NCBI GenBank assembly: GCA_903846015.1
Contig: CAIMZS010000460.1
Location: forward strand, 40 to 64,039
Origin: an uncultured Anaerolineae bacterium
GTDB taxonomy: Bacteria; Chloroflexota; Anaerolineae; Anaerolineales; Villigracilaceae
Direction: 5' to 3'
Length of the DNA: 64,000 nucleotides
Shown one piece after another: positions 2,363-64,000 of this stretch (positions within the stretch are counted from its first letter, which is position 1; each line of letters starts with the position of its first letter). The notes below the pieces were generated by a model. That model saw only the letters and a program-made list of their open reading frames with translations, was not told the origin of the DNA and did not search any database. The position numbers and the translations under genes were made by a program.

Positions 2363-2388
2363 GTGCCCGTGCTGAACCGGGTACCATT
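2363..2388. repeat. Short dispersed repeat, family A' (GCCCGTGCWGAACCGGGTACCATT)
   Basis: gtgcccgtgctgaaccgggtaccatt lies between the convergent stops of the YhhN and YitT genes. It is near-identical to 18977-19002 and, in reverse complement, to 12109-12132. Confidence 0.7.
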
Positions 2389-5270: not shown

Positions 5271-6476
5271 ATGACTCTTGACTTTCAACAGGTGTATCAA
5301 AAGATCAAGGAAATTGGCGCCACCGTTCAACAACGCAAAAAAACACTGGAAGAACGGCGCGCTCATGCCCGCTTTCTGCTGAATTTGCACGCCGATAACC
5401 TGGCTGGGTTGCGCTATAAGATTGAAACCGTCAAAGAGGCTGATCCCAATATCCGCTGCGCCCTGCCGCTTCAGGAACGCCTGGACCACCACAGCCCTGG
5501 GCCTGATCTGCCGTCCGCCGCAACCCTGATCGCCGCAGACGGTTCGCAGATCAATCCAGACCGGCATGCCGCCATCCAATACGGATTGGTAAATGTAGGC
5601 GCAATCATCCTGCGGCTGAACTCGAACGAAGCACCCATCATTCGCACCGACAGCGAACTGCTTTACGATGATGAACTATACACTCCATCCGGAAACCCAC
5701 TCTCGGAGGGCCTGGTTGCCCTACAGCGCGATCTGAAAGAACGGGCAAAACTTCTTGTTCTGGCAGATGAATTCGGCGTTGACGGCAGCCCGGTGATCAC
5801 ATTTACCGATGGCCCCATCGAACTGTGGGGAATGAGGGATGGCGAGGATGCCCTCGCCTTTGAGCAGAGCCTGAAAAAATACCTGTCTGTGCTTTCCCAG
5901 CTTCAACAAAAAAATATCACCACGGCTGGTTACGTCGACAAGCCATCATCCGATCCAGTCATCCGCTTGCTTGAACTGACCGAAGCAACCGATGATGACC
6001 TGAAAAAACTGCGCGAATTTCATCCCTTACGTGGTGTCACAGACCGCTGGCTTTTTGGCGATGGGAACGTCGCGCTGATCAAAAGCGGTGAACGCTCGGC
6101 CGTATTCGCTTTTCAATCGAAATCCGAAAAATATTACAACGGCATTTTGGCCCTGCACTTTTTTTATCTTAACGTTGGCACAGACAGGCATCCTACCATC
6201 GTACGGGTCGAGATCCCTAAATGGGTTGTTGATGACCCCGAAAAGCTGAACATGCTCCACGCCGTGCTTATCAGCCAATGCCGCATGCTGGGCGCCAGAC
6301 CCTACCCCTACCTGCTGCATCGCGCCCACGAAACAGCCGTGGTCACACATGAAGAAAAGCAGCAAGTCGACCAGATGCTGATGAGTGAACTTTATCGCTC
6401 CGGTGGAGAAATTGACGAAGGCTCATACAAGCAATCCGCCAAGGATTTGGCCGGAAGAACGGGCTACCGGCGCTAA
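5271..6476 (+). CDS. nurA: NurA-domain nuclease (HerA partner)
   Basis: 401 aa with NurA-like acidic motifs: LIAADGSQINPDRH (catalytic-Asp context), ITFTDGPIELWG and YVDKPSSDPVIRLLEL. It lies two genes upstream of a HerA-like ATPase. Confidence 0.7.
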   Translation: MTLDFQQVYQKIKEIGATVQQRKKTLEERRAHARFLLNLHADNLAGLRYKIETVKEADPNIRCALPLQERLDHHSPGPDLPSAATLIAADGSQINPDRHAAIQYGLVNVGAIILRLNSNEAPIIRTDSELLYDDELYTPSGNPLSEGLVALQRDLKERAKLLVLADEFGVDGSPVITFTDGPIELWGMRDGEDALAFEQSLKKYLSVLSQLQQKNITTAGYVDKPSSDPVIRLLELTEATDDDLKKLREFHPLRGVTDRWLFGDGNVALIKSGERSAVFAFQSKSEKYYNGILALHFFYLNVGTDRHPTIVRVEIPKWVVDDPEKLNMLHAVLISQCRMLGARPYPYLLHRAHETAVVTHEEKQQVDQMLMSELYRSGGEIDEGSYKQSAKDLAGRTGYRR

Positions 6477-7221: not shown

Positions 7222-8946
7222 ATGTTTAATCAAAACTCGAAAATTGTAGTTCAACAACCCACCATCGGCTACATGGTCGGCGGAGGCCTGAAAGAATCCT
7301 TCTCCGCCCGCCTGACCGTTGACCCGCTTGACATCCAGGAAGGCGGCTTTGTTGTCATAGACAGCGGCAACTACCGTTTCTACGGGCTGGTTACTGACCT
7401 GAAGCTGGGCGCCACCGACCCGCGCTTCGCGGATGAGCAGTCCGAGAAACGCCTGCCGCCCTCCCTCGCCAAGGCATTGCACGGCCAAACCCTCTTCACC
7501 AACCTGGAGATCCTGCCGGCGCTCATGCTGGAACGCGGCCCCGATCCCGCTTCAAAGGAATACAAACTATGGCGGGCAGAACACCCCGAAGATCCGCGCC
7601 CCCTGCCGGTCAAGACCGTGCCCATGCATCACGCGCCTGTCAGCCTGGCGGATGCAGCCGATATTGCCACCATTTTCGGCGACCCCGATAAAGATGGTAA
7701 CTTTATCATCGGCTACACCCGGGAACAGGGGCACCCGGTCTGCATCAACCTGGAGAAGTTCGTTCAGCGCTCTTCCGGTGTCTTCGGCGCCACCGGCACC
7801 GGTAAATCCTTCCTCACCCGCCTGATATTGGCCGGGTTGATGCACTATAACAAGGCTTCGGTACTTGTGTTAGATATGCACAACGAGTACGGCTTTGACG
7901 ATGTTGCCTCCGACACCAAAATGCCCGTCATTGGCTTAAAAACCAAGTTCAGGGGTAAGGTCAGGGTGGTCGGTCTTGGCGCAGGGGCCAAAATCCGCAA
8001 TAGTCAGACACCCGACTTTAACCTGGAAATCGCCATGAAGGATATCTCCGCGGCGGATGTAGAAATGCTGGCGCGCGAATTGAATCTAAAGGATACCTCC
8101 CCCACCACACTCAACGCACTATACACATCCTTTAAAAGCGACTGGTTTGCACACTTCAAATCAATGAACCGCGAAGAAGTCGAAGTGGAAGATGACAAGG
8201 GTCGGATCAAGAAAGTGCCGCACCCCGATAGCGTTGCCTGCTGGGCCGAGGCAAACGGCGTTAATGTGATGGCTGCCGAAGCCCTGCACGACAAGCTGCG
8301 CCGTTTATTCGGCAAACCCTATATCGTTGAAAAACCCGTTTCGGATGGCATCGGTGAAATCATCAAGGCACTCGAAGCCGGGCAGCACGTGGTTTTATCG
8401 TTCGGCGACCATGAAGCTGACCTGGACTACCTGCTGGTGTCCAACCTGCTGACACGCCACATTCGCGACGCATGGGAAAAAAGAACCAATGAATTCCGCG
8501 CGCACGGCTCGCGCGAACCACGCCCGCTGGTCATCGTGGTAGAAGAGGCTCACAAACTACTGAACCGCGAAATGGCCGCGCAGACCACCTTCGCCACCAT
8601 CGCGCGCGAACTGCGCAAATACTACGTCACCCTTCTGATTGTCGATCAGCGCCCATCCCAAATCTATGATGAAGTCATGTCGCAGCTCGGCACACGCATC
8701 AGCGGCTGGCTGGGCGATGACGATGACATCCAGGCCGTCCTATCGGGGCTGTCTGGCCGTGAAGCCATTAAGGGTATGTTGGCACGCCTGCAGCCCAAGG
8801 AAGAAGTCCTGCTGCTCGGCTGGGGCGTGCCCATGCCGCTGCCGGTGCGGTCACGGCGTTATGACGATAACTTCTGGCGCGAGCTGCTCGGCGCAAAAAA
8901 CGGCAGTACCGAAGCCGGTTTATTGAAAGAGTTGGGTTTTGATTAA
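7222..8946 (+). CDS. herA: HerA-like FtsK/HerA-superfamily ATPase
   Basis: 574 aa with an N-terminal HAS-barrel-like region. Walker A is GVFGATGTGKSF (nt ~7786-7809) and Walker B is PLVIVVEEAHKLL (nt ~8521-8560). The distal motif LLIVDQRPSQI is typical of HerA. Confidence 0.85.
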   Translation: MFNQNSKIVVQQPTIGYMVGGGLKESFSARLTVDPLDIQEGGFVVIDSGNYRFYGLVTDLKLGATDPRFADEQSEKRLPPSLAKALHGQTLFTNLEILPALMLERGPDPASKEYKLWRAEHPEDPRPLPVKTVPMHHAPVSLADAADIATIFGDPDKDGNFIIGYTREQGHPVCINLEKFVQRSSGVFGATGTGKSFLTRLILAGLMHYNKASVLVLDMHNEYGFDDVASDTKMPVIGLKTKFRGKVRVVGLGAGAKIRNSQTPDFNLEIAMKDISAADVEMLARELNLKDTSPTTLNALYTSFKSDWFAHFKSMNREEVEVEDDKGRIKKVPHPDSVACWAEANGVNVMAAEALHDKLRRLFGKPYIVEKPVSDGIGEIIKALEAGQHVVLSFGDHEADLDYLLVSNLLTRHIRDAWEKRTNEFRAHGSREPRPLVIVVEEAHKLLNREMAAQTTFATIARELRKYYVTLLIVDQRPSQIYDEVMSQLGTRISGWLGDDDDIQAVLSGLSGREAIKGMLARLQPKEEVLLLGWGVPMPLPVRSRRYDDNFWRELLGAKNGSTEAGLLKELGFD

Positions 8947-12108: not shown

Positions 12109-12132
12109 ATGGTACCAGGTTCTGCACGGGCA
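12109..12132. repeat. Short dispersed repeat, family A' (reverse orientation)
   Basis: atggtaccaggttctgcacgggca is the reverse complement of tgcccgtgcagaacctggtaccat. Confidence 0.6.
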
Positions 12133-18976: not shown

Positions 18977-19002
18977 TTGCCCGTGCAGAACCGGGTACCA
19001 TT
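18977..19002. repeat. Short dispersed repeat, family A'
   Basis: ttgcccgtgcagaaccgggtaccatt lies between convergent gene ends and is near-identical to 2363-2388. Confidence 0.7.
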
Positions 19003-22344: not shown

Positions 22345-23937
22345 ATGAACCCGAACCAAACTGCCGCATTTAAAACCCTGGAACAAGCTCAGCAAGCTTT
22401 AAAAAGTGGAGATAAGAATGCATCCCGCCAGCTTGCGGCACATGCTGTTCAGCTTGCCCCGGAATTGGAAGAGGTTTGGTTGTTAATGGCAGCGCTGGCC
22501 ACCCCACAAGATAGTATAGCCCTTCTCCAGAAAGCTTTGCAGATTAACCCACAAAGCGAACGCGCCGTTAAGGGTTTGGCCTGGGCAAAAAAGCGCATAT
22601 CCCAGGAAACGCAAATCGGCATGACGGCACCAAACATTCCTCTGCATCCGGTAACGCCAGAAGAAATAAGCGCTCCACCGATTAGGAACGCTCCGGAACC
22701 GCAAATCGGCATGATGGCATCAGACATTCCTCTGCATCCGGTAACGCCAGAAGAAATAAGCGCTCCGCCGATTAGGAACACTCCGGAACCGCGACAGATT
22801 ACCCAGAATTTGGTTATCAGTCCTGCAGAACCCGGGCCTGTCAAACTTCCTGGTTCGATCACCCAACCTCACAAGATATCATCCACTGAACATGAGCCGG
22901 CCACTACCCTTGCCGATGCACCCAAAACTCCTCGCAGCAAAGATTCTTTTGTTCTTCCGCGTTATTCCTACGTGGCCCTGCTGGGTGTTTTTATCTGCCT
23001 GGTAATTGCATGGTTGGCATGGCAAGGCGTGCAGCCAGCTGCGGCTTTCTTCAGCAGCCACCCATTTACCGGTCAGGAACATGGGCCAGCCTGGGCGCCG
23101 GTAAGCATCGTCAAACCAGCACCTCCACTTAATACAAATGAGATCATTGCAGACCCAACCGCCACGAATATTACCCCTGCAGATCTGGCGCCCACTGCTC
23201 TTGCGCCCTCGGTTGACCCTTCAACCCTGACTGAAACCCCGGCACCAGCAGCAGTCGTTCTTTCAACTGATATACCGGTTGTTATGACAGCAACCCAGCA
23301 GATTGCCGCCATTCTCCCCACAAACACACAGATCGTCGTCACGGCAACACCACAACCAACGGCCATCCCGCCCACATCCGTACCGGCTCCGACTCTCCCG
23401 GCTCCAACCATTCCAGTGCCAACCGATCCTCCATTACCCACTGCCACTACGATAGCAACATTGGCAGTGAGCACACTCGTAGTCGATGCAGCTGCATCAC
23501 CCACCCCACTACCCACCGATACTGGCGGGCCGTTCGCCACTCCCCTGCCACCGGGTAACAGCGGGGTAGTCAGTTCCGCTGGCAGCGGACACTGGATCGA
23601 TGTAGATCTGACAAACCAGATGGTATACGCCTATGATGGCAATAACATTGTAAATTCATTCCTGGTGTCCACCGGGACATGGGCGCATCCCACCGTCACT
23701 GGTCAGTACCATGTATACGTCAAATATCGCTACACAGATATGTCCGGCCCCGGCTATTACCTGCCCAACGTGCCCTTTACCATGTATTTTTACCAGGGAT
23801 ACGCACTTCACGGCACATACTGGCACAGCAACTTCGGCACCCCCATGAGTCATGGATGCGTCAACTTGAGCATACCCGATTCCGAATGGGTCTACAATTT
23901 TTCATCGGTGGGGACACTGGTCAATGTGCATTATTAA
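22345..23937 (+). CDS. TPR / Pro-Thr-rich linker / L,D-transpeptidase (YkuD) protein
   Basis: The N-terminus is TPR-like. An internal 30-aa tandem duplication follows, then a TM segment and a long P/T/A-rich linker. The C-terminal YkuD catalytic context is HGTYWHSNFGTPMSHGCVNL. Confidence 0.85.
   Translation: MNPNQTAAFKTLEQAQQALKSGDKNASRQLAAHAVQLAPELEEVWLLMAALATPQDSIALLQKALQINPQSERAVKGLAWAKKRISQETQIGMTAPNIPLHPVTPEEISAPPIRNAPEPQIGMMASDIPLHPVTPEEISAPPIRNTPEPRQITQNLVISPAEPGPVKLPGSITQPHKISSTEHEPATTLADAPKTPRSKDSFVLPRYSYVALLGVFICLVIAWLAWQGVQPAAAFFSSHPFTGQEHGPAWAPVSIVKPAPPLNTNEIIADPTATNITPADLAPTALAPSVDPSTLTETPAPAAVVLSTDIPVVMTATQQIAAILPTNTQIVVTATPQPTAIPPTSVPAPTLPAPTIPVPTDPPLPTATTIATLAVSTLVVDAAASPTPLPTDTGGPFATPLPPGNSGVVSSAGSGHWIDVDLTNQMVYAYDGNNIVNSFLVSTGTWAHPTVTGQYHVYVKYRYTDMSGPGYYLPNVPFTMYFYQGYALHGTYWHSNFGTPMSHGCVNLSIPDSEWVYNFSSVGTLVNVHY
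22611..22790 (+). repeat. 2 x 90-bp near-identical in-frame tandem duplication inside the L,D-transpeptidase gene
   Basis: Unit 22611-22700 and unit 22701-22790 differ at about 6 positions. They encode QIGMTAPNIPLHPVTPEEISAPPIRNAPEP and QIGMMASDIPLHPVTPEEISAPPIRNTPEP. Confidence 0.9.
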
Positions 23938-51782: not shown

Positions 51783-51819
51783 GCGATAGTCCCGCGATAG
51801 TGCCGGTTCTAGCACAGCC
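51783..51819. repeat. Short dispersed repeat, family A (reverse orientation)
   Basis: gcgatagtcccgcgatagtgccggttctagcacagcc. The reverse complement contains GTGCTAGAACCGGCACTATCGC. Confidence 0.75.
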
Positions 51820-52015
51820 ACTGCTACAAGGCGAAGGAATCGAAAATATGTGTTCACCCAATCCAAACCTATTTTCTACGAAATTCTGCACCACACCCTC
51901 GGCTTGGGCTTTACCCACTCTTAAAAAAGTGCTATGCTATGATTGGTTTTACATCATCCCGGCACAGACCGGGACCGTCCCTTTCTGAATCTCTCTATTA
52001 CTTGGCTAAAAATTC

Positions 52016-55277: not shown

Positions 55278-55330
55278 CGGCCGTGCTAGCGATAGTCCCC
55301 GGCTCCCGCACGGGGCACCGGCACTATAAG
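55278..55330. repeat. Short dispersed repeat, family A (hairpin form)
   Basis: gcggccgtgctagcgatagtccccggctcccgcacggggcaccggcactataag aligns with 58666-58713. Confidence 0.75.
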
Positions 55331-55331
55331 A

Positions 55332-55368
55332 CGAGATTGCCACGCCGCAAAGAACGCGGCTCGCAATC
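55332..55368. repeat. Short repeat, family B (ATTGCCACGYCGC...GAACGC...TCGCAAT), intergenic copy
   Basis: cgagattgccacgccgcaaagaacgcggctcgcaatc has the internal hairpin GCCGC/GCGGC and outer arms GATTGC/GCAATC. The same family occurs at 60045-60082 and 60659-60700. Confidence 0.6.
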
Positions 55369-57096: not shown

Positions 57097-57180
57097 GCGA
57101 TAGTCCCGGTGCCAGCACGAGGCGATAGTCCCGGTGCCCCGTGGCCGTGCTAGAACGGGCACTATCGCGATAAATCGCTC
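57097..57180. repeat. Two adjacent family A repeat units
   Basis: gcgatagtcccggtgccagcacgag followed by gcgatagtcccggtgccccgtggccgtgctagaacgggcactatcgcgataaatcgc. Confidence 0.75.
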
Positions 57181-57384
57181 TACTATCTCAAGCAGGGGAA
57201 TTATACGATTATTAACGCTGCAAACTTTGCGACTTTGATGAAACAATCGCTTTGCGTGCGAGAAGCCGGGTTTATGTCTGCCTGCTTCCTGGCGAAACTA
57301 TTTTTATCACAATACCAGTCATCCCATGGAATGGTTCCGATCTCCACCTGGAGACACGGGCCCTGATGGAACAACCGCTTTGCG

Positions 57385-57418
57385 TGGCCCTGCTAGAACG
57401 GGCACTATCGCGATAAAC
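57385..57418. repeat. Short dispersed repeat, family A
   Basis: tggccctgctagaacgggcactatcgcgataaac. The preceding segment gatggaacaaccgctttgcgtg duplicates gatgaaacaatcgctttgcgtg at ~57236. Confidence 0.7.
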
Positions 57419-58638: not shown

Positions 58639-58815
58639 ACCGCATCGTGCGGTGTCTGAACCGGCCCTGCTAGCGATAGTCCCGGCTCTCGCACGGGGCA
58701 CGGGCACTATCGCAGATTTACGCAGATTTAGATGATTACACAGATTAGAGCAGATTAGAGCAAGAGCAAGGTTAAAGACTATCTCGTGGCCGTGCTAAAT
58801 GATCCCGGTTCCCGA
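58632..58815. repeat. Mosaic of short repeat modules filling the thrC-thrB spacer
   Basis: The modules run in this order: GTCTGAACC-hairpin-GTCTGAACC; a family A hairpin; CGCAGATTTA x2; GATGATTACACAGATTAGAG plus CAGATTAGAG plus CAAGAGCAAG; and a degenerate family A end. It is collinear with 61531-61662. Confidence 0.8.
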
Positions 58816-59792: not shown

Positions 59793-61511
59793 ATGGAAAC
59801 CCTTTCCTCAAACATTGACAGCCGCTCTGTAGATTTTCTGGCCAATTCTGAATATCAGCGCGCGTTAGCGGCCAACCTGCGTGAACGCATCGAACTTGTT
59901 CGCCAGGGCGGCGGCGAGAAATACCGCCAGCGCCACGAGCAGCAAGGCAAACTTTTCGTCCGCGAACGTATTGAATGCCTGTTGGATCCGGGGTCGCCCT
60001 TCCTCGAGCTGTCTGCGCTGGCTGCATGGGATATGTACGGCGAGACTGCCACGTCGCTGGGGAACGCTCGCAATGACAAGAGTGAAAACGCCGCCCCAGC
60101 CGCAGGCATCGTCACCGGCATCGGACGCATTTGCGGGCATGAAGTAATGATCGTTGCTAACGATGCCACCGTCAAAGGTGGCACATACTTCCCCATGACG
60201 GTAAAAAAGCACCTGCGCGCCCAGCAAATCGCCGAAGAAAACCACCTGCCCTGCCTGTACCTGGTTGATTCAGGCGGGGCGTTTTTACCTATGCAGGATG
60301 AAGTCTTCCCGGACGCGAACCATTTCGGGCATATTTTTTATAATCAAGCCCGTATGAGCGCCAAAGCCATCCCGCAAATCGCCGCGGTCATGGGCAGTTG
60401 CACCGCTGGCGGCGCCTACGTCCCCGCCATGAGCGACGAGGCCATCATCGTCCAGGGCACAGGCACCATCTTCCTGGGCGGCCCGCCGCTGGTCAAAGCG
60501 GCGACCGGCGAGGATATTTCTGCCGAGGAACTTGGCGGTGCCGATGTGCATACCCGCAAAAGCGGCGTTGCCGACCATTACGCTGAAGATGATGAACACG
60601 CCATCTCACTGCTTCGCGATATCGTCGAAACTTTGCCAACCGCCAGATCTCGCCACGGGATTGCCACGTCGCTGGGGAACGCTCCTCGCAATGACAGGAG
60701 AGAGTCTTACCTGGCAGCGCTTGATGTAATCCCTCCGGAAGAACCGCTCTTTCCCGCCGAAGACTTATACGGCATCCTGCCACGCAGCTTCCGCGAGTCA
60801 TACGATGTGCGCGAGGTGATTGCCCGCCTGGTCGATGGCAGCAAATTCCGCGAATTCAAAGCGCGCTACGGTACAACACTTGTAACCGGTTTTGCCCGTA
60901 TTCACGGCTATCCTGTAGGCATTATCGCCAACAATGGCGTTCTTTTTAGCGAATCAGCTCTGAAAGCCGCTCATTTCATCGAGTTGTGCGATCAACGCGG
61001 TACACCACTTTTGTTTCTACAAAACATTACCGGCTTCATGGTCGGACGCGAAGCAGAGTCGGGTGGGATTGCACGCGATGGGGCCAAGATGGTACATGCC
61101 GTTGCCAACACCCGCGTACCCAAACTAACCGTGGTGATCGGGGGATCCTTTGGCGCCGGCAACTACGCCATGGCCGGGCGCGGCTATTCACCTCGCTTCC
61201 TGTGGATGTGGCCCAATGCGCGCATCTCCGTCATGGGCGGCGAGCAAGCCGCCAATGTACTCCTGACCATCAAGCAAGACCAGCTTGCCCGTGAAGGTAA
61301 GGCGGCGCTTAGCCCAGAACAGGCGGCTGAGTTTAAACGCCCCACTCTCGAAAAATATGAACACGAAGGCAACCCGTATTACTCCACCGCCCGGCTGTGG
61401 GATGATGGCGTGATCGACCCGCTCGACACCCGTAAGATACTTGGGTTGGCGCTCTCGGTGGTGCTCAATGGGCCGGTGGAAGACAATCATTTTGGTGTCT
61501 TCAGGATGTAA
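59793..61511 (+). CDS. Methylcrotonoyl-CoA carboxylase beta (carboxyltransferase) subunit, with two repeat-derived in-frame inserts
   Basis: Long stretches match recalled MCCC2/LiuB sequence ([61 protein letters not shown]). The ATG at 59793 is preferred over the TTG at 59784. Confidence 0.9.
60045..60082 (+). repeat. Family B repeat inserted in-frame in the carboxyltransferase CDS (copy 1)
   Basis: actgccacgtcgctggggaacgctcgcaatgacaagag encodes [13 protein letters not shown]. Confidence 0.7.
60659..60700 (+). repeat. Family B repeat inserted in-frame in the carboxyltransferase CDS (copy 2)
   Basis: gattgccacgtcgctggggaacgctcctcgcaatgacaggag encodes [13 protein letters not shown]. It differs from copy 1 by about 2 substitutions and one 3-nt indel. 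Confidence 0.7.
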
Positions 61512-61530
61512 CCCTGCGCCCTTTTCACCG

Positions 61531-61662
61531 CGTGTCTGAACCACCTCGTGCGGTGTCTGAACCGCAGATTTACGCAGATTTCGATGATTACGCAGATTAG
61601 AGCAAGAGCGAGTGTCTGAACCGTTGCGTGTCTCGTGGCCGTGCTAGAACCGGCACTATCGC
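61531..61662. repeat. Mosaic of short repeat modules between the carboxyltransferase and the SDR gene
   Basis: The modules run in this order: GTGTCTGAACC x3; CGCAGATTTA x2; GATGATTACGCAGATTAGAGCAAGAGCGAG; and CGTGGCCGTGCTAGAACCGGCACTATCGC. The module order matches 58632-58815. Confidence 0.8.
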
Positions 61663-61673
61663 TGGAGTAATTC

Positions 61674-62720
61674 ATGAACATCCTCATCATCGGTGGAACT
61701 CGCTTTCTTGGTCGTCACCTTGTCGATGCCGCGCTCTCAAACGGGCATACCATCACTCTTTTTAATCGCGGTAAAACAGGTCCAGAACTTTTTCCACAGA
61801 TCGAAACGATTAACGGCGACCGCGAAACGGATCTGAACAGGCTGGCCGGCCGTCAATGGGAGGCGGTCATCGATACCTGCGGGTATTTTCCGCGCATTGT
61901 TAACCTCTCTGCTCAGGCGCTCAAAGATTCAGCCGGAATGTTTGTTTTTATTTCCAGCTTTTCAGTTTATGCAGATTTTTCCAGGATCGGTATCAACGAA
62001 AGCGACCCGACCGGCGGACTGACCGATGAAGGCATCGAAGAAATCACGGGCGAGAGTTACGGCCCCCTGAAAGCGCTGTGCGAACAATTTATTTCGCAAA
62101 AATTCCCGGAACGGGCCCTGATCATCCGCCCTGGACTGATAGTAGGCCCCCATGATCCCACCGACCGCTTTACTTATTGGCCCGCGCGCGTTGCAGCAGG
62201 CGGCGATGTGCTTGCCCCGGAAGACCCGCAGGTCCCTGTCCAAATCATCGATGTGCGTGACCTGGCCGGGTTTATCATCCATCTGATCGAACAGAAATCA
62301 ACCGGCCATGGCCCTGCTAGAACGGGCAATATCGCTAGAACCGGCACTATCGGCGTTTATAACGCCACCGGTCCTGCCGTTGAGCTAAGTTTCGGGGCCA
62401 TGCTTGAAACCTGCAAACAAGTCAGCGGCTCGGATGCGAATTTCAAGTGGGCATCCGTTGAGTTTCTGTCTGAAAACAAGGTTGCTCCATGGAGCGACCT
62501 GCCTGTCTGGGTACCAAATACACCCGCCGATGCTGGATTTTCCCGCGTCGATATTTCCAAAGCGCTCAGCGCTGGTCTGACCTTCCGCACTCTCTCCGAG
62601 ACAGTGCGCGATACGCTGGCCTGGGCATCCACCCGCCCAATTGACTACAAATGGCTGGCGGGCCTGGATACCGATCGCGAAATCGAACTGCACAGCCTCA
62701 TGAGGGAGACACGGCGATAA
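61674..62720 (+). CDS. NAD-dependent epimerase/dehydratase (SDR family) with a repeat-derived in-frame insert
   Basis: MNILIIGGTRFLGRHL Rossmann start, YGPLK catalytic Y-x3-K context. Confidence 0.8.
   Translation: MNILIIGGTRFLGRHLVDAALSNGHTITLFNRGKTGPELFPQIETINGDRETDLNRLAGRQWEAVIDTCGYFPRIVNLSAQALKDSAGMFVFISSFSVYADFSRIGINESDPTGGLTDEGIEEITGESYGPLKALCEQFISQKFPERALIIRPGLIVGPHDPTDRFTYWPARVAAGGDVLAPEDPQVPVQIIDVRDLAGFIIHLIEQKSTGHGPARTGNIARTGTIGVYNATGPAVELSFGAMLETCKQVSGSDANFKWASVEFLSENKVAPWSDLPVWVPNTPADAGFSRVDISKALSAGLTFRTLSETVRDTLAWASTRPIDYKWLAGLDTDREIELHSLMRETRR
62310..62354 (+). repeat. Family A repeat (1.5 units) inside the SDR CDS, in frame
   Basis: ggccctgctagaacgggcaatatcgctagaaccggcactatcggc encodes GPARTGNIARTGTIG. 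Confidence 0.75.
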
Positions 62721-62769
62721 ATCGCCGTGCTATCATGTACGGGATTGGAAATAACAAGGGATCAACCAA

Positions 62770-64000
62770 ATGGCAAATGCCCCGCTATTTACAAAGATTC
62801 TGATCGCCAATCGCGCCGAGATCGCTGTGCGCGTTATGACTGCCTGCCAGGAACTCGGTATCCAGACTGTCGCTGTCTATTCGGAGGCGGATGCTGACGC
62901 CTTGCATGTGCGCATGGCAGACCAGAGAGTGCTGCTAGGCGCGTCTTCGCCCAAAGAATCCTATCTCAACATTGAAAAGATCATTTCAGCAGCCCAGCAA
63001 ACCGGCGCGCAAGCCATCCATCCCGGTTATGGTTTTCTCTCTGAGAATGCCAGTTTTGCCGAGGCTGTCACCAAAGCCGGACTGACCTTTATCGGCCCAT
63101 CCGCCCATGCCATTCGCGCAATGGGTGACAAAGAACAGTCCAAGATTAGTATGAAAGCCGCCGGGGTTCCCACCATTCCAGGCCATGAGGGTCTGATCCA
63201 AACCGCGGAATTCCTTTCTGCCGCAGACAACATCGGCTATCCCGTTCTGGTCAAGGCCGCGGCTGGGGGCGGCGGCAAGGGTATGCGCATCGTGCATTCC
63301 GGGGCAGGAATGGGTGAGGCGCTCGAATCAGCCCGCCGGGAATCGCTCAACTCCTTTGGCGATGACAGGCTGCTAGTTGAAAAATATATAGAACACGCCC
63401 ACCACATCGAATTTCAGGTTTTTGGCGACTCCTTCGGGCATATGGTTCACCTATTTGAGCGCGAATGTTCAGTGCAGCGCCGTCACCAGAAGATCATCGA
63501 AGAGACGCCATCGCCACTGCTGGATTTTGATTTGCGCAACCAGATGGGCGCCGCCGCAGTGGCAGCCGCCCAGGCCGTCGGCTATACCAATGCCGGAACT
63601 GTAGAGTTTATCGTCGATCCTGCCACACGCGCTTTTTATTTCCTTGAAATGAACACCCGCCTGCAGGTCGAACACCCCATCACTGAAATGGTGGTGGGAT
63701 TGGACCTTGTGCAGTGGCAGCTGCGTGTAGCTGGCGGGGAACCTTTCCCATTTGCCCAGGCCAGTCTGACCCAACGCGGGCACGCCATAGAATGCCGCCT
63801 GTACGCCGAGGATCCCGCCAATGGATTCATCCCCGCCACCGGGAAGATGCTGCGCGTGACGGATAGCATTCAGCCGCGCGGGCCAGGTATCCGTTTCGAT
63901 ACTGGCGTCATCACCGGCAGCCAGGTCAGCCACTTTTATGACCCTCTGCTCGCCAAGCTGATTGTACATGCCGAAGACCGCCCCGATGCGCTGCGGCGTA
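62770..64000 (+). CDS. Acyl-CoA carboxylase alpha subunit, biotin carboxylase domain (probably methylcrotonoyl-CoA carboxylase alpha), 3'-truncated by the window edge
   Basis: This ORF is absent from the supplied track because it has no stop in the window. My translation from ATG 62770 gives MANAPLFTKILIANRAEIAVRVMTACQELGIQTVAVYSEADADALHV...HPGYGFLSEN...YPVLVKAAAGGGGKGMRIV, which is a classic biotin carboxylase. Confidence 0.9.
   Translation, partial: MANAPLFTKILIANRAEIAVRVMTACQELGIQTVAVYSEADADALHVRMADQRVLLGASSPKESYLNIEKIISAAQQTGAQAIHPGYGFLSENASFAEAVTKAGLTFIGPSAHAIRAMGDKEQSKISMKAAGVPTIPGHEGLIQTAEFLSAADNIGYPVLVKAAAGGGGKGMRIVHSGAGMGEALESARRESLNSFGDDRLLVEKYIEHAHHIEFQVFGDSFGHMVHLFERECSVQRRHQKIIEETPSPLLDFDLRNQMGAAAVAAAQAVGYTNAGTVEFIVDPATRAFYFLEMNTRLQVEHPITEMVVGLDLVQWQLRVAGGEPFPFAQASLTQRGHAIECRLYAEDPANGFIPATGKMLRVTDSIQPRGPGIRFDTGVITGSQVSHFYDPLLAKLIVHAEDRPDALRR

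Follow-up and report, generated by a model that had tools for sequence, protein, structure and literature searches.

In-frame insertion of short selfish repeats into genes is a phenomenon established elsewhere. The Rickettsia palindromic elements (RPEs; Ogata et al. 2000), as two papers summarise them, are palindromes of ~105-150 bp that add 30-50 residues and are restricted to Rickettsia, a genus of obligate intracellular bacteria with reduced genomes (PMC10969869, PMC3184786). [quoted passage not shown] Here we describe a short interspersed repeat, termed family A, that lies in-frame within the gene of an extended short-chain dehydrogenase/reductase (SDR) of an uncultured Anaerolineae bacterium. 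The DNA analysed, hereafter the window, comprises 64,000 nt (contig CAIMZS010000460.1, positions 40 to 64,039, forward strand), and coordinates refer to it unless another contig is named. Probably, a two-unit block resembling REPs and bacterial interspersed mosaic elements (BIMEs) was copied into a loop of the SDR in this lineage and has persisted there as a tolerated passenger.

The original prediction, made from the letters of the window, placed a family A repeat in-frame at 62310-62354. The DNA at this position reads GGCCCTGCTAGAACGGGCAATATCGCTAGAACCGGCACTATCGGC, and the frame of the open reading frame (ORF) 61674-62720 translates it to GPARTGNIARTGTIG between ...IEQKSTGH and VYNATGP..., exactly as had been quoted. 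The presence of an insert thus stands, but its size does not: against orthologues it measures 16 residues (48 nt) and not ~15 (45 nt). Likewise, what had been counted as 1.5 units is one full unit and one short unit of 18 nt, the natural unit of family A being 24 nt long (consensus GGCCGTGCTAGAACCGGCACTATC). The features concerned are as follows.

61674-62720, + strand: the host, a gene for an extended SDR of 348 aa (NAD-dependent epimerase/dehydratase family) that appears to be intact.
62307-62354, + strand: in-frame insert of 48 nt, or 16 codons (HGPARTGNIARTGTIG), in the order CAT, long unit, short unit, GGC.
62310-62333, + strand: long unit of family A (24 nt), GGCCCTGCTAGAACGGGCAATATC, same subtype as 57386, with 3 mismatches to the consensus and 1 to 57386-57409.
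62334-62351, + strand: family A short unit, 18 nt, GCTAGAACCGGCACTATC, without the GGCCGT head, an exact match (18/18) to intergenic 61643-61660.

Placement of the insert is ambiguous by one GGC codon (62307-62354 or 62304-62351). In a codon comparison the site reads TCA ACC GGC [CAT GGC CCT GCT AGA ACG GGC AAT ATC GCT AGA ACC GGC ACT ATC GGC] GTT TAT AAC in the window and ATA ACC GGC ACA TAT AAT in a syntenic relative (L003); the flanking host DNA is ...AAATCAACCGGC on the left side and GTTTATAAC... on the right. Tryptic peptides predicted from the insert are TGNIAR and TGTIGVYNATGPAVELSFGAMLETCK.

The insert belongs to the family A interspersed repeat, with a match far above chance. A search with the 19-mer GCTAGAACCGGCACTATCG, allowing up to 3 mismatches, found 8 sites in the window where chance would give 0.01; the two units within the gene are among them, which bears out the claim that the same element occupies neighbouring intergenic regions. 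The core CSGGSACTATCG was found 12 times against an expectation of 0.9. Moreover, 62334-62352 repeats intergenic 61643-61661 without a mismatch, the first unit and its left flank agree with intergenic 57383-57411 at 27 of 29 nt, and 62307-62347 shares 78% identity with intergenic 57140-57180 across 41 nt. Tandem Repeats Finder reported 62316-62352 as 2.1 copies of period 18. The insert block folds no better than its shuffles (z = +1.19), and no terminal inverted repeats were found at the SDR copy, whose junctions show only an ambiguous GC/GGC repeat of 2-3 nt.

Family A is not a member of the RPE, REP or MITE families. So far as those accounts describe RPEs, both are selfish interspersed repeats that occur between genes and in-frame within conserved metabolic genes, in several genes per genome, and both leave the host protein intact with an extra peptide thought to be placed where the fold allows. 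In contrast, the block described here is 48 nt long, consists of units of 24 and 18 nt, carries one palindrome arm, has no similarity to RPE sequence, and resides in a Chloroflexota metagenome-assembled genome (MAG). It therefore shares with RPEs the in-frame insertion with an intact ORF, but not their size or host (48 nt, Anaerolineae), and the likeness would be analogous, one of behaviour and not of family membership. The REPs, REPINs and BIMEs of Proteobacteria resemble family A in having units of 20-40 nt, in forming singlets, inverted doublets and mosaic clusters with other short motifs in spacers, and in being so abundant that assemblies break at them. The REP trait of a short, GC-rich imperfect palindrome may have its counterpart in the long forms of family A, which fold well (z = -2.97), though the single unit does not (z = -0.41). 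They differ in that family A has no such tag and no known RAYT, is commonly found in head-to-tail arrays and has copies inside coding sequence. MITEs are likewise small non-autonomous repeats with open frames fused to or embedded in host ORFs, but they usually measure 100-400 bp and have terminal inverted repeats and target-site duplications, neither of which is present at the SDR copy. Judged by such comparisons, the anatomy appears closer to REP/BIME mosaics and the behaviour more like that of RPEs and other in-frame-fusing repeats. Ordinary coding variable-number tandem repeats (minisatellites) arise locally within one gene. Family A shares with them unit lengths that are multiples of three (18 and 24 nt), a head-to-tail layout and a copy number that varies (biotin carboxylase of 547 or 539 aa, see below); the difference is that the unit here is common to a dispersed intergenic family.

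The SDR was aligned with its 119 closest homologues (64-75% identity, ~330 aa), giving an alignment of 120 sequences. Not one of the 119 holds a residue in the 16 columns of G211-I226, and the segment is hence absent from every orthologue outside the species (0 of 119), the distant ones included. No other internal insert of at least 7 residues exists in the alignment. The length of the site is invariant across the 119 homologues, i.e. it is not naturally variable in the SDR family; that the insert is tolerated here is a little more remarkable than the original prediction implied. Within the species, all three members of the 90%-identity protein cluster (alleles with 99% identity) have 348 aa and an identical insert. 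The insert was also seen in independent assemblies, namely ENA ERZ27313599, ERZ1426842, ERZ1426836 and ERZ1426841 and the unitig-based Logan assembly ERR4195066, and the window differs from the ENA contig L001 by 5 substitutions and 0 indels over 12.3 kb. Since the insert is identical in several independent assemblies, with no indel over this distance, an assembly artefact is very unlikely. From the alignment, we infer that the insert was gained in this species' lineage after its split from relatives at ~75% protein identity, by insertion and not through loss elsewhere.

The identity of the host as an SDR epimerase/dehydratase was upheld. ORF 61674-62720 matches PF01370 (46.8 bits against a gathering cutoff of 20.9, E = 3.3e-12), no specific model in NCBIfam being matched, and a Foldseek search of its model against the PDB returned GalE-like UDP-sugar 4-epimerases (probability 1.0, TM 0.6-0.75) with the same two-domain fold. 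The glycine-rich dinucleotide-binding motif G7-G8-T-R-F-L-G13 at the N-terminus and the catalytic YxxxK motif Y129-G-P-L-K133 are both present and are invariant in the 120 sequences. The frame stays open through the insert and normal SDR sequence follows it, as had been stated and as the family alignment confirms. All 62 positions invariant among the 119 homologues are retained, as are 92 of the 96 that are at least 90% conserved. The gene stands between those of a carboxyltransferase and a biotin carboxylase in an operon of methylcrotonyl-CoA-carboxylase type, in the same order as in L003. With its conserved residues and its operon place kept, the gene is apparently intact and gives no sign of decay. 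The spacer between carboxyltransferase and SDR is 163 nt in the window against 57 nt, free of repeats, in L003. A scan of 61400-62800 for promoters and terminators revealed nothing tied to the insert.

The window allele differs from the two other alleles of the species at 61942 and 61959, encoding F90 and F96 in place of Y90 and I96. At least 90% of the 119 homologues have tyrosine at position 90, and the family consensus at position 96 is isoleucine. Each difference is an A-to-T change within a T-rich stretch, and the two may be sequencing or polishing errors or real variants.

An AlphaFold2 model of the SDR was built on the 120 sequences (mean predicted local distance difference test score, pLDDT, 91.3; predicted template modelling score 0.90). 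Residues 212-225 are the only segment with pLDDT <50 and lie between helix 194-209 and strand 227-231, so that the insert is modelled as a disordered loop. Its composition (four Gly, four Thr and two Arg of 16 residues) suits a flexible, solvent-exposed loop. In extended-SDR topology, a helix of this kind followed by an x-Y-N-x-G strand belongs to the Rossmann domain, and a loop that leads into a parallel strand at its N-terminal end faces away from the cofactor cleft. By this general topology, strand 227-231 may be taken as the last strand of the Rossmann sheet. The predicted loop thus agrees with the model. Its position, going by the same topology and not by the model coordinates, is probably distal to the cofactor/substrate cleft rather than close to the substrate-binding C-terminal domain, the place for which a check had been proposed.

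Family A was surveyed over ~85 kb of this genome, and repeat loci were counted on the 83-kb contig. Counting variants, ~16 loci were found there, of which at least 3 are coding and ~13 intergenic. The units occur as singlets, inverted groups (57097-57168), long palindromic forms that fold well (58663-58713) and head-to-tail arrays. The copies outside the SDR gene are listed below.

61634-61662, + strand: intergenic family A copy closest to the SDR gene, immediately upstream of its ribosome-binding site, within a mosaic of other short modules at 61520-61665.
57097-57168, mixed strands: three family A units in orientation (-)(-)(+), an inverted, REPIN/BIME-like group; fold -33.6 kcal/mol, z = -1.7.
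57383-57411, + strand: intergenic family A copy that lies upstream of thrC and matches the first unit of the insert most closely.
58663-58713, + strand: palindromic long form of family A (GCGATAGTCCCGG...CGGGCACTATCGC), between thrC and thrB, with a hairpin of -26 kcal/mol (z = -2.97).
55279-55327, + strand: second long palindromic form, followed by an intergenic copy of a further repeat, family B, at 55333-55368.
51783-51821, - strand: intergenic family A copy.
2365-2387, + strand: intergenic variant unit GCCCGTGC(A/T)GAACCGGGTACCAT, with more copies at 12109-12131 (-) and 18979-19001 (+).

The fold of a lone family A unit does not surpass that of its shuffles (z = -0.41). GCGATAGT... opens the arms, and neither a GTAG nor a CGTC tag is found at the hairpin foot. 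Units are mixed, in varying orders, with the modules GTGTCTGAACC, CGCAGATTTA and GATTAGAGCAAG(A/T)GCGAGTGTC, and also with a related variant unit, GCCCGTGCAGAACCGGGTACCAT, which directly adjoins family A units at loci L008 and L006. The intergenic arrays of L008 at 5971-6011 and 7418-7458 have the same layout of long unit and short unit, and the SDR insert therefore looks like an ordinary family A block. Several contigs of this organism start or end at these repeats, suggesting that there are many copies genome-wide.

Outside this organism, an exact 24-mer was found in the spacer of at least one other Anaerolineae MAG locus (L006) among the genome-contig matches listed. This locus has a GC content of 57%, against 52% here, and a tetranucleotide correlation of r = 0.81, and a metagenome scan gave only a homologue of it (L007); it appears to belong to a different Anaerolineae species. 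No family A copy is present in the 9.3 kb of L003, whose spacers are free of repeats. A scan of viral sequences with the repeat pattern gave no match, and Rfam revealed no known RNA family over the repeats at either its gathering or its E-value threshold. The distribution of family A thus seems narrow whilst reaching beyond one species, and the best explanation is that the family is native to this Anaerolineae lineage. In the literature, nothing was found for the sequence or for repeat elements of Chloroflexi/Anaerolineae, and both the repeat family and the density of its coding inserts in a Chloroflexota operon appear to be undescribed.

Some further observations concern the units themselves. 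Family A units can form a 4-bp stem, GCC[G/C]-N9-[C/G]GGC (57143, 57386, 61637, 62310), and the two subtypes differ by a possibly compensatory change of G:C to C:G; the copy at 57143 has a mismatch in this stem, and the copies are too few to judge covariation. A variant, GCCCGTGC(A/T)GAA(A)CCGGG(T/C)ACCAT, is found in spacers of the window (2365-2387, 12109-12131, 18979-19001), of L008 (4775-4797) and of L006 (5840-5920), where two of the copies are flanked by convergent genes and others adjoin family A units as direct fusions. Sharing a GAACCGG core, the variant, family A and the GTGTCTGAACC module probably form one superfamily.

The SDR is not the only gene of its operon to carry repeats. 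That three coding inserts lie close together, one in the SDR and two in the carboxyltransferase, was corroborated, the distance being ~2.3 kb; counting the 1.4 kb past the window end, for which the genes were read from contig L001, there are five within ~5 kb. The other four are as follows.

60041-60077, + strand: family B insert 1, in-frame in the carboxyltransferase gene, in a loop naturally variable in length among homologues.
60651-60698, + strand: family B insert 2, in-frame in the carboxyltransferase gene, 15 residues in the inter-subdomain linker.
L001 12470-12600 (~140-270 nt beyond the window end): composite repeat mosaic in the C-terminal tail of the biotin carboxylase, in-frame, 43-48 residues, absent in L003.
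L001 12763-12870: apparent start of the next gene downstream, an adh_short SDR, with MIKARTR followed by (TGTIGRAR)-type / (ARTGTIGR)x4 repeats from four 24-nt family A units.

At insert 2 of the carboxyltransferase, none of the 15 columns is occupied in more than 5 of 64 homologues, 9 columns are empty in all 64, and none of the 64 has a comparable insert at this site. The biotin carboxylase mosaic is composed of GTCTGAACC, CGCAGATTA, two family A units and GATTAGAGCAAGTGCGAGTGTC, and family A is read there in its other open frame (AVLEPALS). The operon inserts hence use both open forward frames, ARTGTIGR and AVLEPALS. Between assemblies the two lengths of this protein (547 and 539 aa) are accompanied by a shift of the downstream gene of exactly 24 nt, which is one unit; therefore, unit number is polymorphic and units are gained or lost in coding DNA. 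The ATG of the adh_short SDR is preceded by an AGGA ribosome-binding site, there is no plausible start nearer its Rossmann motif, and ~35 residues are absent in L003. A protein search with (ARTGTIGR)x5 returned nothing scorable, the query being too short and biased for a database of 5.8 billion sequences.

The only other internal insert of at least 7 aa among the 64 carboxyltransferase homologues, ERLLRHPAQRD in P0149, lies near the linker of insert 2 and may be an independent repeat insertion in another lineage. Two of the 5 substitutions between the window and L001, at 60059 and 60683, fall within the ~80 nt of family B inserts and both are synonymous (~4e-4 by our own binomial estimate); this clustering suggests gene conversion between repeat copies or faster change inside them. 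The intergenic family B copy at 55333-55368, GATTGCCACGCCGCAAAGAACGCGGCTCGCAATC, has the same outer ATTGC...GCAAT arms as the carboxyltransferase copies and a different inner stem, and it may resemble the widespread hairpin repeats of the GCAATGAC type in Chloroflexota and cyanobacteria. Finally, the ERZ1426841 contig (14,254 nt) shares with the window the 348-aa SDR and the 163-nt spacer, but has a carboxyltransferase of 536 aa versus 572, and its upstream genes are DSBA, GST, VapBC, acyl-CoA dehydrogenases and thiolase in place of thrC-thrB. A rearrangement in a strain, a version that lacks the family B inserts or a chimeric assembly at repeats could each account for this.

Under the reading we favour, a block of 24 + 18 nt (48 nt with its flanks) would have been copied into the codons of the loop that joins helix 194-209 to strand 227-231. 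It would have persisted on account of a length that is a multiple of three and a frame (ARTGTI) without a stop codon, such compatibility of frame and length acting as the filter for survival, whilst the Gly/Thr/Arg-rich peptide would sit as a flexible surface loop and leave the fold undisturbed. The insert would then be a neutral or near-neutral passenger and not a functional module. As to mechanism, copying from another repeat copy by recombination or template switching would be favoured over a dedicated transposase, because the insert has a single palindrome arm, its units belong to two subtypes (those of 57386 and 61637), the modules form variable mosaics and the target resembles the repeat core. 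The latter likeness is seen in host TCAACCGGC against repeat AGAACCGGC, and in the biotin carboxylase target TGGAACC against CTGAACC.

Several points weigh against this account. No insert-free allele was found within the species, so that its alleles neither date this particular copy nor show it to be mobile. Neither a target-site duplication nor a clean element boundary is definable at the SDR insert, and the likeness of target and core could be due to chance, Thr-Gly being simply encoded ACC GGC. No transposase is evident, and no search aimed at one was made. The two non-synonymous differences of the window allele, F90 at a near-invariant Tyr and F96 against the consensus Ile, possibly reflect sequencing error or slightly relaxed constraint.

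The most serious competitor, which we nevertheless consider unlikely, is that family A is a true REP/REPIN or MITE moved in trans by a transposase, of RAYT/IS200-IS605 type or another. The good hairpins of the long forms, the inverted unit pairs at 57097-57168, the presence of the exact 24-mer in what is apparently another Anaerolineae species and the possible compensatory switch in the 4-bp stem would all fit such an origin. Against this, the SDR copy is one-armed and has no inverted partner, no recognisable terminal inverted repeats and no target-site duplication; the fold of a single unit is no better than that of shuffles, the tag is missing from the hairpin foot, modules are joined in many orders and no transposase gene is known for family A. 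Recruitment of the loop for a function, as an interaction or regulatory surface or through an RNA-level signal common to the four genes of the methylcrotonyl-CoA carboxylase operon, seems improbable. It would draw on the five in-frame inserts in one operon all four of whose genes carry repeats, and on an SDR insert that is fixed and identical in all sampled alleles at a site of otherwise invariant length. However, the units are common in intergenic spacers over the 83-kb contig, different genes translate different frames, the loop is predicted to be disordered, unit number varies in the biotin carboxylase, and the four of six open frames equal the random expectation. There is very little to recommend a chimeric join at a repeat, an annotation artefact or a pseudogene. 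Contigs of this organism do break at repeats and ERZ1426841 has another gene context upstream of the SDR, but the sequence is identical in several independent assemblies, the unitig-based one included, without an indel over 12.3 kb, the 48-nt block falls below the k-mer length that the contig name (k141) suggests for the assembly, and the ORF is intact with all invariant residues kept. Lastly, an ancestral loop from which the intergenic copies derive, or a coincidental resemblance, is effectively refuted by the absence of the loop from all 119 homologues and a chance expectation of 0.01; the family moreover resides at many intergenic sites and in a spacer of another species.

Other candidates were set aside. 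Adaptation of the repeat to coding DNA was rejected: the unit has two open forward and two open reverse frames, i.e. 4/6 (for a random 24-mer ~0.68 per frame by our own calculation), which together with a period divisible by three is about what chance would give. On anatomy, a template/variable-repeat pair of a diversity-generating retroelement is unlikely, with no reverse transcriptase nearby and unit differences that are not adenine-specific, as are a CRISPR array (no spacers), a phase-variation tract (units are multiples of three) and an operator site (tandem arrays inside coding sequence).

Beyond the single insert, families A and B may tentatively be regarded as an undescribed mosaic short-repeat system of Anaerolineae that colonises coding sequence at an RPE-like frequency, a broader proposal that we hold with clearly less conviction than the copying of the block into the SDR. 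Behind it stand at least five in-frame inserts in one four-gene operon, the use of two frames and the polymorphic unit number inside a gene. If true, it would offer a free-living, environmentally abundant lineage in which to study the birth of peptides from selfish DNA and the rules of site tolerance across metagenomes, and a genome-wide census could raise the significance of the finding. The copying of a repeat block into the SDR would itself extend in-frame colonisation of conserved enzymes by short selfish repeats beyond reduced intracellular genomes (Rickettsia, Coxiella) to a Chloroflexota lineage. The inserts may also serve as experiments of nature on an extended SDR, a carboxyltransferase and a biotin carboxylase, marking the sites where insertion is permitted. 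In practical terms, assemblies break at such repeats, and metagenome protein catalogues come to hold proteins of inflated length with odd segments of low complexity.

One further repeat in the window, a 90-nt tandem repeat at 22605-22792 (2.1 copies, 93% identical), lies within ORF 22345-23937 (530 aa) and appears unrelated to families A and B.

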